This document shows positions 2,979 through 44,691 of a DNA stretch of 62,296 nt, one piece after another. The notes beneath the pieces were generated by a model. It saw nothing but the letters and a program-made list of their open reading frames with translations. It had not been told where the DNA came from and ran no database searches. This DNA comes from a virus. The stretch is taken from the UHGV virus genome UHGV-1379142. One strand, 5' to 3'. The number at the start of each line of letters is the position of its first letter. Within the stretch, counting starts at the first letter, position 1. The position numbers were made by a program, and so were the translations under genes.

Positions 2979-3681
2979 GAATCCCATTGGGGTCTCTAAA
3001 CTGGGTGAACTCATGGGAACCCTAACAGATATTGCTGAGGGCAATCATGAGCCAAGCTTCAGTACATGAACAAGCATACCATCTCTTACTCACAACTTCC
3101 CTTACGTATCAACAGATTGCAACACAATTGTCTACAACTTTCAAAGTTGTTTGGCGCGTAGCTAACACAAAACTTTCAGATGAAGAAAGAAAAGCACGCA
3201 AAGCTAAGAACTATAGACGTGCTCAACTTGGTAAGCTTAACACTATGTATAATAGAAAGAAGACTAACAGTCCTTTCTACAAAGCTGGCCTTTCATTTGA
3301 CGATGATGGTTACGCCTTAGTGTATAAACCTAAATGGTTTACAGGCACGCGAGGGAACTCAAGCAAAGTCTACGCACATCATGTGGTACTATGCAAAAGA
3401 GAAGGTATGACAAAGATTCCAACAGGTTATCATGTTCATCACATAGATGGTCGTCATGCAAATAATAAAGTTTGGAATCTTATATTGTTAACGTCTACAC
3501 AACATAGACGTCTTCATGATATACTGAAGAAGGTGCAGAGACTAGGAGCCTATGAAGATATAGGACAGCGCCCAGCTTGGATAGACATACTGTTTAGGTA
3601 CTGTCTATGCTTGATGATATAGTCCAATTACCATAGTAATATGGGAAACATGCTTATGTTGTTCGGCATGTAAAATTAAAG
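2979..3681 (+). mobile_element. Group I self-splicing intron (~703 nt) inserted in the PNLQNIP codons of the DNA polymerase gene; carries an HNH homing endonuclease ORF
   Basis: P1: exon-1 3' end AGACCCU pairs with intron internal guide GGGGUCU (2988-2994), with a terminal U.G wobble. P10: exon-2 5' AAUGGG pairs with CCCAUU (2982-2987). Intron ends in G (3681). Spliced product reads DP-NGQNMP, close to consensus DPNLQNIP, in frame. Confidence 0.6.
3032..3622 (+). CDS. HNH homing endonuclease (intron-encoded)
   Basis: HVHHIDGRHANNKVWNLILLTSTQHRRLHD HNH motif; located inside the intron. Confidence 0.7.
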   Translation: MLRAIMSQASVHEQAYHLLLTTSLTYQQIATQLSTTFKVVWRVANTKLSDEERKARKAKNYRRAQLGKLNTMYNRKKTNSPFYKAGLSFDDDGYALVYKPKWFTGTRGNSSKVYAHHVVLCKREGMTKIPTGYHVHHIDGRHANNKVWNLILLTSTQHRRLHDILKKVQRLGAYEDIGQRPAWIDILFRYCLCLMI

Positions 3682-4536
3682 AATGGGCAAAACATGCCCC
3701 GTAAAGGTACCAGCCCCATCAAAACATTCTTCAAATCCCAGAAAGGTGTTATCGTTAATCTTGACTTAGCTCAGATTGAGTGGCGTATTGCTGCTGAACT
3801 AAGTAAAGATCCTGTCATGATTCATGAATTAAACGAAGGCTTGGACATTCACACTGACAATGCTATTCGATTCCTTGATGCTGGAAAATATGAGCGTGGT
3901 TCAGAAGAGTTTAAACAAGTTCGTACAATTGCTAAGACAATATCATTCCGTCTTCTCTATGGTGGTTCAGCGGAAGGTTTCTTTAGAGATCAACGTATGC
4001 CTGACTATAGCTTAAAAAGATGGAGAGAGATTGTTAATGCTTTCTATCAAAAGTATCAAGGTCTGAAACGATGGCAGGATGCTAATATCCAAACAGCTTC
4101 TGCACGTGGGTATATACGTAATCCTTCTGGGCGTGTGCTTACCTTTGACGAAGAGGTAAAGTACGGTATTGAATCTGTAGATGTTAAACAGGTTAAGAAC
4201 TATCCAGTTCAATCTGGTTCTACAGATGTTATGTATTTGTGTATGGTTAAGATCTTAGAGAAGATCCAAGCTAGTGGCATCAACCCTTTGCTTATCCTTC
4301 AAGTACATGACTCTCTTGTGTTTGACTGTACGATAGAAGAAGCAGAAACTTTGTGTCGTATAGGTATAGAAACATTCAAGAGTTTACCAGCACTAGCAAA
4401 AGAATACTTTGGTTGGGATATAGTAGTACCACTTTTAGGTGACTGTGAAGTAGGGTATGACTATGGTAACACTAAGGGATTTAAAGAAGAAGAGATGGAC
4501 AAGATCTTCAAAGATCTTCCAGCTTTTCTCTCTTGA
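3682..4536 (+). CDS. DNA polymerase I (family A) exon 2: palm/fingers with motifs A, B, C
   Basis: Motif A DLAQIEWRIAAE, motif B RTIAKTISFRLLYGG, motif C QVHDSLVFD; in frame with exon 1 after intron removal. Confidence 0.7.
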   Translation, partial: NGQNMPRKGTSPIKTFFKSQKGVIVNLDLAQIEWRIAAELSKDPVMIHELNEGLDIHTDNAIRFLDAGKYERGSEEFKQVRTIAKTISFRLLYGGSAEGFFRDQRMPDYSLKRWREIVNAFYQKYQGLKRWQDANIQTASARGYIRNPSGRVLTFDEEVKYGIESVDVKQVKNYPVQSGSTDVMYLCMVKILEKIQASGINPLLILQVHDSLVFDCTIEEAETLCRIGIETFKSLPALAKEYFGWDIVVPLLGDCEVGYDYGNTKGFKEEEMDKIFKDLPAFLS

Positions 4537-5022: not shown

Positions 5023-5119
5023 GTTAGCTTAACTCAACAAAAGAAGGCCAGTCTATAGATGTACATATGTAAGCTTGAGACATACATACACTATAGCTGG
5101 CCTTTTGTTTTGGAGAATT

Positions 5120-6028
5120 ATGTACACAAACAAGTTCAATTTGCCCAAGGCTTTTGAGGATGCTCTTCAACCACAACCTTACGATCCTGTTGGTGCATCA
5201 GACTATAGTGCTACATCTTTGATTGACAGTCCGAGATATGTTCAGCTCTATAAACGACATCGTAATGAGATTGTCGAAGACTGCATGGACCAGTGGTATG
5301 TATGGAGAGGTAACGCAGTACATCATGAGATGGAATCAGTTCTTTCAAAGAATCCAAAGTATTTGGTTGAACGTAAGATCACTCGTTTTGACAAGCCTGA
5401 GAATGGCGACGAGTCAACGTACAGACGGGTCGTCGCAAAGTTTGACCTCTATGATAAAGAGACACAGACTTTATCAGACTGGAAGACGTGTTCCGCGTAT
5501 ATGCATGGCAGTACGGGGAAACAAGAATGGATTAACCAGCTCAACCTTAATGCGTACTTCCTTGAGAAAGAAGGGTATCCGGTAAAAGATGTTGCTATCA
5601 ACGCCATCTATATGGATTGGAGACCTCAATCTGGACGGTACAAAGATGACAAGTATCCCGAATTACCTTTCAACGAATTCCGCTACCGCGTGCTGCCTCT
5701 TGAAGAGCGCGAGTCCTACTACAAGGAACGCCTTCGTCTACACGTGGAGGCCGAATCCTGTAGCGATGACATGCTGCCAGTATGCACTGCGGACGAATGC
5801 TGGGAGAAGCCTGCTAAGTATGCCGTTTACAAGGTAGGAGCAGCGAAGGCCACAAAACTTTGTGACACTCGTGAAGAAGCAGATGAGTACATTCGCCACA
5901 AGAGACTTGGACCTGACTACAAGGTTGAGTATCGACCTGGGGAGAGAACAAGATGTGAGAGGTACTGTCCCGTAAAAGCTTGGTGTAATCAGTATGCAGA
6001 GTACAAGAAAAACCAACTGGGGAGCTAG
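5120..6028 (+). CDS. PD-(D/E)xK nuclease with C-terminal 4-Cys cluster (Cas4/RecB-family-like exonuclease)
   Basis: D..D...E.K-like core (FDLYDKETQTLSDWK) plus C-x3-C ... C-x3-C-x5-C near the C-terminus (CTADEC ... CERYCPVKAWC). GGAG RBS before ATG at 5120. Confidence 0.5.
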   Translation: MYTNKFNLPKAFEDALQPQPYDPVGASDYSATSLIDSPRYVQLYKRHRNEIVEDCMDQWYVWRGNAVHHEMESVLSKNPKYLVERKITRFDKPENGDESTYRRVVAKFDLYDKETQTLSDWKTCSAYMHGSTGKQEWINQLNLNAYFLEKEGYPVKDVAINAIYMDWRPQSGRYKDDKYPELPFNEFRYRVLPLEERESYYKERLRLHVEAESCSDDMLPVCTADECWEKPAKYAVYKVGAAKATKLCDTREEADEYIRHKRLGPDYKVEYRPGERTRCERYCPVKAWCNQYAEYKKNQLGS

Positions 6029-14874: not shown

Positions 14875-15615
14875 ATGATGGAACAAGGCTCTCTTGCGGA
14901 TCTCCTTACTCTCGCTAAGTCTGGTGACGACAACAAGCTTGGCGAAATGATAGCTATGATGAACAGTGGTATGGGTGGTCAGCAGTGGATGTGGTGGATC
15001 CTCATCATTCTGTTCGCTTTCGGAGGACTGGGTAACGGTATGTTTGGACGTAACATGGCTCCCAATGGTCTGGACAATGCTAACCAGCTTATCCTCGAAA
15101 AGCTTAATGGTATGAGTGTCGAACAGTGTGGTCAGTTCGCTCGTGTAGGCAACGGTATTTGTGACAGCACATTTGCTATTACCAATGCAGTGCGTGATGC
15201 GCGGGATGCCGCTTCCGCCTGTTGCTGCGAAACGAACTTGAACCTCGAACGCATGAAGAATCAGGTTGAACGTGGGCAGGATATGCTGTCTCACCAGCTC
15301 TCTGATTGCTGCTGCCAGACCCAACTCCGTATGCAAGATCTTGCTACCGGTATTCGTGAACAGGCTACGGCCAATCAGTTTGCGAACCAGCAGGAATTTT
15401 GTGACATCAAGACCCGCATGGCCGCTAACCATTGCGAGACGCTTGCTGCCATCCAGGCTAATCAGGCGGCTATCCTTGGTTACATGACTCAGGAAAAGAT
15501 CAGCAATCTTGAACGTGAGAATGCTGCTCTTACCATGCAGTTGTCGCAGAATGCTCAGACGAGAGCTATTATTGAAGCTCTGTCTACCAAGAGCACTACG
15601 ACTCCTGCCGCCTAG
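14875..15615 (+). CDS. membrane protein with one TM helix and two CCC-containing motifs (ASACCCETNL / LSDCCCQTQL)
   Basis: GAAGG RBS; hydrophobic WMWWILIILFAFGGLG; Q/A-rich C-terminal region. Confidence 0.5.
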   Translation: MMEQGSLADLLTLAKSGDDNKLGEMIAMMNSGMGGQQWMWWILIILFAFGGLGNGMFGRNMAPNGLDNANQLILEKLNGMSVEQCGQFARVGNGICDSTFAITNAVRDARDAASACCCETNLNLERMKNQVERGQDMLSHQLSDCCCQTQLRMQDLATGIREQATANQFANQQEFCDIKTRMAANHCETLAAIQANQAAILGYMTQEKISNLERENAALTMQLSQNAQTRAIIEALSTKSTTTPAA

Positions 15616-15640
15616 TAGTTAATGCTTAGCTGAAATATTG

Positions 15641-15664
15641 GGGAGCTTAGGCTCCCCTTTATAG
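15641..15664 (+). terminator. Rho-independent terminator
   Basis: GGGGAGC-ttag-GCTCCCC followed by TTTAT. Confidence 0.6.
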
Positions 15665-15677
15665 TAAAGGACTAAAC

Positions 15678-15929
15678 ATGTTTGGTGTTCCTTCTATTGA
15701 AGAACGTATTCAGGCTGCAAAGAATGAGATCGCTAATCTGGACAAGGTTAGAGAACAGAACCTCAAGGAGTTCGATCGCATTCAGGAACGTCTTGAAGCT
15801 TTGCAGGCAATGCGTAATAAAGAAGTGTCGCGAGTAGGGGAGCTCACCCTGCTGAAAGACGTACGGGATGGTAAGCTCCTCGTACTCGATGTGAATACTA
15901 TGGAACCTGCCCGTATTAAATTCCTCTAA
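15678..15929 (+). CDS. hypothetical coiled-coil protein
   Basis: AAAGGA RBS; ORF track. Confidence 0.45.
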   Translation: MFGVPSIEERIQAAKNEIANLDKVREQNLKEFDRIQERLEALQAMRNKEVSRVGELTLLKDVRDGKLLVLDVNTMEPARIKFL

Positions 15930-15970
15930 GGAGGTGCCTTATGGCTTGTGGCGGCAAGAAGAAAAAGAAA

Positions 15971-15998
15971 GGTAAGTAACTTGACAAATTGAAAAGAG
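15971..15998 (+). promoter_or_regulatory. Sigma70-like promoter P4 (TTGACA-16-TATCTT)
   Basis: GGTAAGTAAC-TTGACAaattg ... TATCTT. Confidence 0.55.
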
Positions 15999-16005
15999 TG
16001 ATTAT

Positions 16006-16190
16006 CTTATAATCAAGAGCGACAGTTGTGCATCTGGCTGTACTCTGAGGTGTCTTGTTATTGAAACTAGGTTCTAGCATAGCCGCTAAACCAGCTATCA
16101 AAACTTGTCCCTTCTTGGTTGCTTCTTCTGCGTTACATGCACATGTCTAAGGCTGGGCCCCCTATGCGAAAGTGTAGGGGGTTTTTATTT
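16006..16190 (+). ncRNA. Candidate small non-coding RNA (~170-180 nt) running from P4 to an intrinsic terminator
   Basis: Promoter P4, then no ORF with RBS, then terminator CCCCCTA-tgcgaaagtg-TAGGGGG + TTTTTATTTT at 16153-16190. Confidence 0.4.
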
Positions 16191-16207
16191 TATACAGAGG
16201 AAAGGTT

Positions 16208-16519
16208 ATGTCAAAGCTTACCACACTCGCTGAATACGTTCATACATGGGCACCGATAGCTACGCAACTTCTTACATCTGACAACCCTACTGTCAAGATG
16301 TACGGCGTAAAGATTCAGCAAGAAGTAGATTCAAAAAGAAAATTACTTGAGGCTGAACTTAAAGAAGCGAAAGCTTTCCTTGGTCTTGACTTAGCTACAC
16401 AGGAAGCTAAGCAGCCACCAATTAAACAAGAAGAACATCATAAAGATGTAGAGCATTCGACTCTTTGTGGATGTACTAAAACAACAAGTAAAACAGAATG
16501 CACAATTACAATCGAATAA
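16208..16519 (+). CDS. hypothetical protein
   Basis: GAGGAAAGG RBS; ORF track. Confidence 0.45.
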   Translation: MSKLTTLAEYVHTWAPIATQLLTSDNPTVKMYGVKIQQEVDSKRKLLEAELKEAKAFLGLDLATQEAKQPPIKQEEHHKDVEHSTLCGCTKTTSKTECTITIE

Positions 16520-16521
16520 AA

Positions 16522-16560
16522 CAAAGAACCCCCTAAGAACCACTTGGCTCCTAGGGGGTT
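16522..16560. terminator. Bidirectional intrinsic terminator separating the + block from the - late operon
   Basis: CCCCCTA ... TAGGGGG stem flanked by T-runs on both strands. Confidence 0.55.
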
Positions 16561-16566
16561 TTCTTT

Positions 16567-17031
16567 TTACTTACCTTCAGGCATGTCAGCAAGTAACTGT
16601 TTTATCTCATGAACACGCGACACGTTGACGCCATTCTTTAAAGACATGATCTCGGCAAACTTCTTAAAGCCAAAGGCAGAAGACACACAGATACCAAATG
16701 CTATCTGATACCAGTCAGGCATAGCAGCAAAGGTATTAAATCCTTCTGTAACCCACTCTGATGTCCAAGGACACCAAGCGAGGATAAGCGGCATAGAGAT
16801 CACGATTGTCCAGAACTCATCCTTCCAACCAGAATTGTCGAGGGAATCTTTTTCCCACGCAATATCTCCCACCACTCCAGACTTGTACAAGTCGATCTTA
16901 GCTGCGGCCTTAGCTTTAGCTACTTCGATCTTGCTTTCAAGTTCTACTTCTTTAAGCTTTTGCTTGCTCTCGAACCATCCCACAATACCTGAGACAATAG
17001 ACTCTATAGGTTTTGCTATTAGGTTCCACAT
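16567..17031 (-). CDS. membrane protein with two TM segments (holin-like candidate), last gene of late operon
   Basis: Hydrophobic FWTIVISMPLILAWCPW and YQIAFGICVSSAFGF; position at operon end. Confidence 0.35.
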   Translation of the reverse strand: MWNLIAKPIESIVSGIVGWFESKQKLKEVELESKIEVAKAKAAAKIDLYKSGVVGDIAWEKDSLDNSGWKDEFWTIVISMPLILAWCPWTSEWVTEGFNTFAAMPDWYQIAFGICVSSAFGFKKFAEIMSLKNGVNVSRVHEIKQLLADMPEGK

Positions 17032-43581: not shown

Positions 43582-43950
43582 TTACTGATTTTCTTTCACC
43601 AAATCCTTAAGCCCAGCAGGAGCTGTGTCTTCATCCGGGAAAGAAATGTTTACGTTGATAACTTCACCAGCGTTCGGATTAAAGTCCATAGCTTTCATCT
43701 TTGGCTGGTAGTAAGAGAGGAGTTCAGTAGCGATCTTAATCTTTTCAGTACTGTTTGTTTTTGCAGACCTAGCCAGATGCACAAGTTCTTTGATAGGATC
43801 GTACCCAAACTCAAAGCGAAGACGACGAAGAAGTTCGTCTCCCTTGGTACAACCCTTCCCATCAGGAACAACAGCAGAAGGACTAGGCTTCTTCAGAAGA
43901 GGTTTTACAGAGTCTTTCTTCATCAATATCACCTGAGTCAGAGCGTTCAA
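43582..43950 (-). CDS. putative terminase small subunit
   Basis: 122-aa basic protein immediately upstream of TerL. Confidence 0.4.
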   Translation of the reverse strand: MNALTQVILMKKDSVKPLLKKPSPSAVVPDGKGCTKGDELLRRLRFEFGYDPIKELVHLARSAKTNSTEKIKIATELLSYYQPKMKAMDFNPNAGEVINVNISFPDEDTAPAGLKDLVKENQ

Positions 43951-44662: not shown

Positions 44663-44691
44663 ATATATAATACATATTGTAATTTTGTCAA
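44663..44691 (-). promoter_or_regulatory. Sigma70-like promoter P5 driving the late (- strand) operon (TTGACA-17-ATATAT)
   Basis: Reverse complement reads cctcTTGACAaaattacaatatgtatt-ATATAT. Confidence 0.5.

Follow-up and report, generated by a model that had tools for sequence, protein, structure and literature searches.

The window considered here is a 62,296-nt stretch of DNA from a virus (UHGV virus genome UHGV-1379142), and the element in question lies at 15981-16191 on its plus strand. It consists of a promoter, a predicted small RNA (sRNA) and an intrinsic terminator, and is followed by a 103-aa gene starting at 16208 and by the convergent late operon. The original prediction had placed a discrete phage sRNA of ~175 nt before this operon; the elements are found where it put them, and the RNA is supported by its retention in relatives, by contigs that lack the downstream gene and by compensatory changes between alleles. 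On these comparisons, the unit is likely a discrete functional RNA gene that is structured and non-coding. Related phages carry the RNA as three main alleles (A, which is that of the window, B and C). Two paired elements recur below, a long-range helix (P1) and a 5′ hairpin (H1). The unit, together with the ribosome-binding site (RBS) that follows it, is made up of these features:

15981-15986, plus strand: -35 hexamer TTGACA (cTTGACAA class), identical across all alleles
16003-16008, plus strand: -10 hexamer TATCTT after a 16-nt spacer, from the consensus scan; unchanged in relatives except for one TATTTT lineage
16015-16190, plus strand: predicted small RNA of ~172-178 nt, with the 5′ end inferred from the -10 and the 3′ end in the T-tract
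16015-16028, plus strand: invariant 5′ segment AAGAGCGACAGUUG (invariant alignment columns 1-14), a candidate seed or the 5′ arm of H1
16027-16033, plus strand: 5′ strand of P1, UGUGCAU (RNA nt 13-19), which takes in the sole variable patch of the 5′ region (allele comparison, folding)
16034-16047, plus strand: invariant block CUGGCUGUACUCUG, which can pair with the 5′ segment as H1 (allele alignment)
16048-16136, plus strand: allele-specific central domain, of which ~71 nt are missing in alleles B and C (allele alignment)
16137-16143, plus strand: 3′ strand of P1, AUGCACA (chance in the complement test 0.0035; pair probability 0.94)
16144-16147, plus strand: UGUC, which pairs with GACA at 16021-16024 and lengthens P1 (folding)
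16155-16191, plus strand: intrinsic terminator with a 13-bp stem, a GAAA loop and U5AU4 (compensatory changes; pair probability 0.95)
16198-16201, plus strand: GAGG, the RBS of gene 16208 (sequence reading)

Retention of the unit in related phages

The loci of relatives were fetched by protein-anchored searches of IMG/VR with the 248-aa gene upstream of the RNA, the 103-aa gene downstream of it and the C-terminus of a 2330-aa gene; further loci came from protein-collection look-ups and DNA-pattern searches. The locus was retrieved from ~45 contigs, mostly from human-gut metagenomes, and the 12 distinct RNA sequences among them fall into the three main alleles. Allele A, found in the window and four other contigs, is ~178 nt long and carries an extra central insertion of ~71 nt. 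Allele B, the majority form, has ~110 nt and includes the sub-variants B2 and B3; allele C (contig L099) has ~123 nt. The -35 hexamer, the -10 zone (apart from the TATTTT lineage), the first 14 transcribed nt and the block 16034-16047 are invariant across alleles, and the sole variable patch in the first 34 nt comprises nt 15-20. The RNA is thereby ordered as an invariant 5′ end, P1, an invariant internal block, a replaceable central domain and a terminator hairpin with a U tail.

Searched with a covariance model, each phage has a single copy of the RNA and no paralog, and the window is matched at 16015-16192 only. The whole unit of promoter, RNA and terminator is present in 85 of the 85 clade loci that cover both flanks, including those retrieved by protein only. 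The RNA is missing in the loci L068-L073, in which the 248-aa protein is at most 44% identical, although one of them (L069) keeps the micro open reading frame (micro-ORF) that precedes the promoter in the window. Two more IMG/VR scans and one metagenome scan for a wider family gave only the same clade, and the loci L080 and L103 were rejected as members because they appear to be chance matches. At gathering thresholds, Rfam 15 has no match across the whole window, and at a permissive E-value cut-off alleles A and B give only sub-threshold, terminator-like matches; no tRNA or tmRNA was found. Two pattern scans over 185,579 bacterial and archaeal species, each represented by one genome, returned no matches, and neither did blastn against E. 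coli genomes, plasmids and GenBank phages. The window DNA likewise has no blastn match among GenBank phages. As far as these searches can see, the RNA appears to be an invention of this clade and not a captured host sRNA.

The unit is also kept where its neighbour is lost. Three independent contigs (L011, L079, L099) lack gene 16208; in these, the bidirectional terminator lies ~25-55 nt past the RNA terminator and is followed by the holin gene. In five others (L046-L050), the gene is frameshifted or truncated. Each of these contigs retains an intact RNA unit. Sequence identity of the RNA among type-B phages is 0.98-1.00, compared with ~0.84-0.86 for the downstream gene. The consensus scan finds no promoter belonging to gene 16208, which would therefore be fed by read-through of the terminator, with the RNA doubling as a leader where the gene exists. 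This gene has the look of a dispensable accessory one whose expression depends solely on read-through. An RNA unit that remains intact without a working downstream gene is not merely a 5′ untranslated region (5′UTR), and these gene-less and gene-disrupted contigs argue against the simple 5′UTR of gene 16208 that the original prediction had set against its own proposal.

Promoter, paired elements and coding potential

The proposed TTGACA-16-TATCTT promoter is present at 15981-16008, and its two hexamers score 10/12 to consensus. Consensus alone finds promoter-like sites at chance level (4 in 3 kb, 4.0 expected), and in the same scans the terminator class is mildly enriched (6 found, 2.5 expected). 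The promoter is credible because of the relatives and of the genome's own promoter class, and not because of its consensus score. Both hexamers are retained in the relatives, and 9 of the 16 spacer positions differ between alleles A and B at a length that is constantly 16; a spacer of fixed length and changing sequence is the pattern expected of a working promoter. Sites of the form cTTGACAA-N16-TATnnT (a pattern also written c/tcTTGACAA-N16-TATnnT) occur in intergenic gaps at 165, 4533, 14728, 15981 and 62190 on the plus strand and at 44691 and 45846 on the minus strand. The divergent pair 44610/44691 probably marks the switch region between the late operon and the plus-strand genes to its right.

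The -10 hexamer overlaps a perfect TATAAT (16008-16013) and a palindrome, GATTAT-CTT-ATAATC (16000-16014). No second copy of this palindrome occurs in the genome, and the idea of an operator was rejected on the ground that it is single-copy. A minus-strand site running from 16214 to 16187 (TTGACA-16-TAAAAT, 11/12), which points left into the RNA terminator, is probably due to chance, because its -35 is supplied by the start of the gene 16208 coding sequence (ATGTCAA), and allele B lacks it (ATGTCGA).

In some type-B phages (L003 at ~5095-5150, L019, L021, L022, L024, L028 and L079), ~46 nt are inserted right at the -35 hexamer of this promoter, between duplicated copies of CTTGACAAC. The insertion includes a small hairpin (GGAAC-TAT-GTTCC) and a T-rich run, and the promoter-proximal TTGACA keeps the 16-nt spacing.

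At the other end of the unit, a 13-bp hairpin (16155-16184) with 6 G-C pairs and a GAAA loop is followed by TTTTTATTTT (T5AT4), in agreement with the proposal of a strong intrinsic terminator close upstream of the gene 16208 RBS. All 12 minimum-energy folds contain this terminator, with pair probabilities of 0.87-1.0, and no antiterminator competes with it. Comparison of the alleles shows that 5 of 10 stem pairs are changed on both sides. The covariation score of the stem is reached by 0 of 500 shuffles, and shifting the partners lowers the share of paired cells from 91% to 33-63%. Alleles B, B2, B3 and C share an unchanged 13-nt terminator loop, AAAGAUCAAGAA (for example at 5250-5262 of L003), on a stem that changes at five positions; the allele of the window has the GAAA tetraloop instead.

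The second paired element is P1. In each of the three alleles, the 5′ patch has a perfect complement just upstream of the terminator: 5′ UGUGCAU with 3′ AUGCACA in allele A, UGCGUG with CACGCA in allele B and UGUAUGU with ACAUACA in allele C. In the variant L046, one P1 pair becomes G-U. The chance of such a complement downstream is 0.0035 for A, 0.014 for B and 0.004 for C (20,000 shuffles), each allele being tested by itself since MAFFT and the covariance model kept the register of allele B. The pair probabilities of P1 and the terminator are ~0.9 and above in the main alleles. The compensatory variation indicates that P1 is a long-range helix selected at the RNA level. The plus strand of the window's allele folds at -54.5 kcal/mol (z -2.3 relative to shuffles), compared with z -0.75 for the minus strand, and the plus strand of allele B reaches z -3.1; the G-U pairs imply a strand-specific fold.

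The unpaired share of the two invariant segments ranges from 42 to 79% across segments and alleles. They can also pair together as the hairpin H1, with the variable patch as the loop, at -8.6 to -9.5 kcal/mol (-9.5 being the value listed for the block 16034-16047). The energy of H1 does not stand out from that of shuffles (z -0.4 to -1.3). P1 could then be either an alternative to H1 or the second stem of an H1+P1 pseudoknot.

The original prediction had described the stretch as free of any RBS-preceded ORF. This holds in so far as none is conserved in relatives over the ~140 nt between the promoter and the terminator hairpin; the allele of the window does hold one, a 31-codon ORF (16055-16150) that starts with TTG and has GAGG 5 nt upstream. 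Since it lies within the insertion that the other alleles lack, it does not count as a conserved coding feature. No ORF is common to alleles A, B and C. Furthermore, a 1-nt indel in the patch between alleles A and B puts the invariant block in different reading frames and excludes a conserved peptide across it.

Proposed mode of action and rival explanations

The reading favoured here, with a probability of roughly 0.55, is that of an autonomous, early-expressed, trans-acting regulatory RNA that probably acts on the host. Host sigma-70 RNA polymerase would start at ~16015, from a promoter of the same class as the other plus-strand promoters of the phage. Most transcripts would end at ~16186-16191 to give an RNA of ~172 nt here and of 105-125 nt in relatives, and a minority of read-through would be the sole transcription of gene 16208. 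Early in infection, the RNA would act in trans, one or both invariant segments pairing with a target RNA, and the terminator hairpin and U tail would form a stability and chaperone module, as in the Hfq-type sRNAs of Proteobacteria. In silico, the unit has the own promoter, independent of its neighbours, and the Rho-independent terminator with a U tail that characterize such sRNAs, and its order of conserved 5′ segment, variable body and U-tailed terminator matches their architecture. The step of trans base pairing, taken by itself, is tentative, its odds falling slightly short of even. No phage RNA polymerase was seen among the proteins scanned, which were only part of the ORFs, and the sigma-70-like promoters suggest reliance on the host polymerase.

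Target prediction, which had been suggested along with the sRNA, gave nothing for the phage itself: none of the translation-start regions pairs with the invariant segments above the level of shuffled queries. The absence of a complementary phage start region makes a target in the host the most likely one. A perfect 14-nt complement of RNA nt 12-25, AGCCAGATGCACAA at 43771-43784 on the plus strand, is treated as a chance match; it covers the patch specific to allele A and lies on the strand antisense to the late genes, and ~0.01 such matches are expected by chance in a scan of the whole genome.

Phage-encoded, Hfq-dependent sRNAs that act in trans are known: lambda PreS/LPR1 and VpdS of vibriophage VP882 favour replication by acting on host (and phage) mRNAs (PMC12197685; bioRxiv 10.1101/2024.10.31.621285). 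Like these, the RNA described here is encoded by a phage as a non-coding unit of its own, ~100-200 nt long, which the host polymerase is expected to transcribe; it has a terminator hairpin, a U tail and a short conserved segment as candidate seed. Unlike them, it belongs to an uncultivated gut podovirus, whereas PreS/LPR1 and VpdS come from temperate phages of cultured hosts; it shares no sequence or Rfam similarity with either.

The layout also resembles that of the lambda 6S RNA (PR′-tR′), with a constitutive promoter, a short non-coding transcript and a strong terminator before further genes. In contrast to lambda, one dispensable 103-aa gene or nothing lies downstream, and next come a second terminator and then convergent genes; the minus strand carries the late operon, which has promoter-like sites of its own near 44691, and the upstream neighbours (83 aa and 12 aa) include no Q-sized gene. 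A Q-antitermination unit was rejected because the late genes are convergent and no upstream gene has the size of Q.

The "type I" sRNAs embedded in a 3′UTR, such as DapZ and MicL, have their own promoter, which usually lies within the upstream coding region. Here, unlike in that class, the promoter begins past the coding region, 2 nt after the stop of the upstream micro-ORF, and a further gene that depends on read-through lies downstream. The stop, preceded by A-rich lysine codons, is so close to the -35 hexamer that the RNA is also in a 3′UTR position relative to the upstream operon. As in the DapZ/MicL class, no terminator separates the upstream genes (15678-15979) from the RNA and the terminator is shared, so that the RNA could also arise by processing of the upstream mRNA.

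A third resemblance is to type III toxin-antitoxin systems such as ToxIN and AvcID, which share the order of promoter, non-coding RNA, terminator and small protein gene, and in which the terminator sets the ratio of RNA to protein. The locus differs from them in that tandem repeats are absent, the protein matches no toxin family, and the protein is often lost when the RNA is kept. An antitoxin RNA of this type was rejected, given the lack of a tandem repeat array and of a match to an endoribonuclease toxin.

Several observations weigh against a trans-acting regulator, or against the elements on which it is built. The terminators of alleles B and C, whose loop has 13 nt and whose U tract is short or weak, are missed by a simple scanner. 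The 3′ strand of P1 in allele B is offset by 4-5 columns from that of A and C, and the automatic pair count missed the compensations. The 5′ tail of the window's allele is unpaired only to ~49% (mean unpaired probability of the 5′ segment 0.49, compared with 0.79 in allele B). The mutual complementarity of the two invariant segments means that their invariance might reflect structure or protein binding and not a free seed. Conservation of the 5′ part of the RNA between A and B is ~0.85, which is not above that of the best-conserved coding patches nearby, and the low diversity, with effectively three lineages, means that covariation comes from few events. Finally, the duplex scan of 88 translation-start regions of the phage yielded best values of -12.8 and -15.2 kcal/mol, not better than shuffled queries.

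Some of these points are shared by a protein-binding or decoy RNA, which would sequester a host factor (a chaperone, nuclease or defence RNA) or mimic its ligand, for example as a pseudo-antitoxin of a type III toxin-antitoxin system or as a CRISPR-repeat mimic. The pairing of the invariant segments into a hairpin is as expected for a structured protein-binding site, the 13-nt loop is invariant in B and C as the stem changes, no mRNA target appears in phage start regions, and the succession of RNA, terminator and small gene resembles type III loci. However, this explanation is unlikely: the conserved loop is absent from the window's allele, tandem repeats are absent, the protein encoded downstream has no match among toxin or defence families, and the 185,579 species representatives, the E. 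coli genomes and the plasmids hold no similar sequence, so that no mimicked host RNA was found. A related and more elaborate proposal is a long shot, namely a modular anti-host effector, of a sort so far undescribed in gut phages, built from an invariant 5′ hairpin whose hypervariable loop pairs with a co-varying 3′ segment (as a pseudoknot or switch) and from a swappable central domain, serving as a decoy or mimic against an RNA-guided or RNA-regulated host system (defence, antitoxin or chaperone). Were it true, the variation of the loop among alleles would reflect an arms race and not neutral compensatory drift.

Regulation in cis was also weighed. A leader or attenuator, that is, a structured 5′UTR and terminator (of riboswitch, attenuator or antiterminator type) that meters transcription into gene 16208, would fit the classic order of promoter, structured RNA, terminator and gene. 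It would also fit a promoterless gene whose RBS begins 8 nt past the T-tract and whose expression must cross the terminator. Against this stand the contigs in which the unit is intact without the gene or next to a disrupted copy, the better conservation of the RNA than of the gene, the high pair probability of a terminator that no other fold competes with, and the lack of an Rfam leader or riboswitch match. A cis-regulatory leader was accordingly rejected, the linkage to gene 16208 being broken and a mutually exclusive antiterminator fold being absent, and is regarded as quite improbable. Very improbable, too, is a DNA-level element with a functionless transcript, be it a regulator site or promoter-proximal control (the palindrome GATTATCTTATAATC and adjacent DNA) or simply a recently exchanged mosaic module. 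The palindrome is a perfect, invariant 6-3-6 repeat over the -10, these phages are mosaic, and the 5′ conservation between A and B does not exceed that of some coding patches. Yet the palindrome occurs once in the genome, the invariant sequence reaches 34 nt into the transcribed region, and the compensations seen in P1 and in the terminator, among them G-U pairs that can form on one strand only, are RNA-level signals. For the window's allele only, the central insertion might instead make the transcript a small mRNA or dual-function RNA encoding a 31-residue peptide (16055-16150). An ORF with an SD-like (Shine-Dalgarno-like) GAGG is present, and the single substitution within allele A (TTC to TTT, L001) is synonymous in its frame, although one substitution has no statistical power. 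The ORF is missing from B and C, which lack the insertion, and starts with TTG; its SD lies at the junction of the invariant block and the central domain and its 3′ end in P1, both mostly paired in the predicted fold. A coding role is thus highly unlikely.

The comparisons indicate that the RNA is an unannotated family of phage-encoded small RNAs, comparatively well supported by natural variation. To our knowledge, phage small RNAs have come almost entirely from temperate phages of model bacteria. The present family belongs to a 62-kb podovirus lineage that recurs in human-gut metagenomes (~45 contigs from many samples). Should the RNA prove to be a regulator that acts in trans and is driven by a strong early-type promoter, it would offer a handle on host reprogramming by an uncultivated gut phage, and its invariant segments would predict a host target once the host is identified. 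The three alleles, the natural knock-outs of the neighbouring gene and the P1 compensations provide a ready design for mutational tests.

Neighbouring genes and the phage

The features that flank the RNA unit are the following:

ending at 15615, plus strand: 248-aa gene (ORF list)
15640-15657, plus strand: terminator of the 248-aa gene (consensus scan)
15678-15929, plus strand: 83-aa gene (ORF list)
15941-15979, plus strand: micro-ORF of 12 codons, MACGGKKKKKGK and a stop, with a strong SD (AAGGAGGT) (translation; kept in relatives)
16208-16519, plus strand: accessory gene of 103 aa without its own promoter (ORF list)
16527-16560, no strand assigned: bidirectional terminator that closes the plus-strand block and the convergent late operon (consensus scan)
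16567-17031, minus strand: DUF3154-type holin-like gene of the convergent late operon (ORF list)

The original prediction had read GGTAAGTAAC as an element upstream of the -35; it is in fact the Gly-Lys-stop end of the micro-ORF and does not belong to the promoter. In close relatives the micro-ORF reads MACGGKKKKKKGR or MACGKKKKKGK, each followed by a stop, with synonymous changes, and in L069 (at ~3210-3250; 248-aa protein 44% identical) it reads MACKPKKKKRRGK and a stop. On this pattern, it looks like a real gene for a micropeptide of Cys plus polylysine.

The 103-aa protein has no match in Pfam, PHROGs, PADLOC, NCBIfam or PDB sequences. Its gene evolves fast and has undergone N-terminal truncation, frameshift or deletion in several relatives (homologs P0006, P0007 and P0010). 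A sub-threshold Rfam match to His_leader at 16432-16567 on the plus strand (28.5 bits relative to a gathering threshold of 49, E 0.023) spans the 3′ end of this gene and the bidirectional terminator, and is most likely a terminator artefact.

The plus strand of the genome encodes a DnaB-like helicase, a split family-A DNA polymerase, a ligase, ThyX and a DHH protein, and the minus strand encodes the terminase, portal and structural proteins; the late operon next to the locus also holds the 2330-aa gene (ORF list). HMO-2011-type podoviruses of Roseobacter, Pelagibacter, Puniceispirillum and Rhizobium have portals ~30-35% identical to that of the phage, as do some Vibrio and Pseudomonas phages. 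The homologs of the holin are all in phages of Proteobacteria, and for GenBank phages with holin and portal homologs the host, where one is on record, is a proteobacterium; the 61-63 kb contigs that bear the RNA are mostly human-gut metagenome assemblies. From these similarities, we infer an uncultivated human-gut podovirus that is distantly related to HMO-2011-type phages and probably infects a proteobacterium. On the plus strand, two ORFs make up the family-A DNA polymerase, one with the exonuclease and N-terminal polymerase part and the other with the C-terminal polymerase part, and an ORF of 196 codons lies between them (1872-2999, 3032-3622 and 3694-4536).

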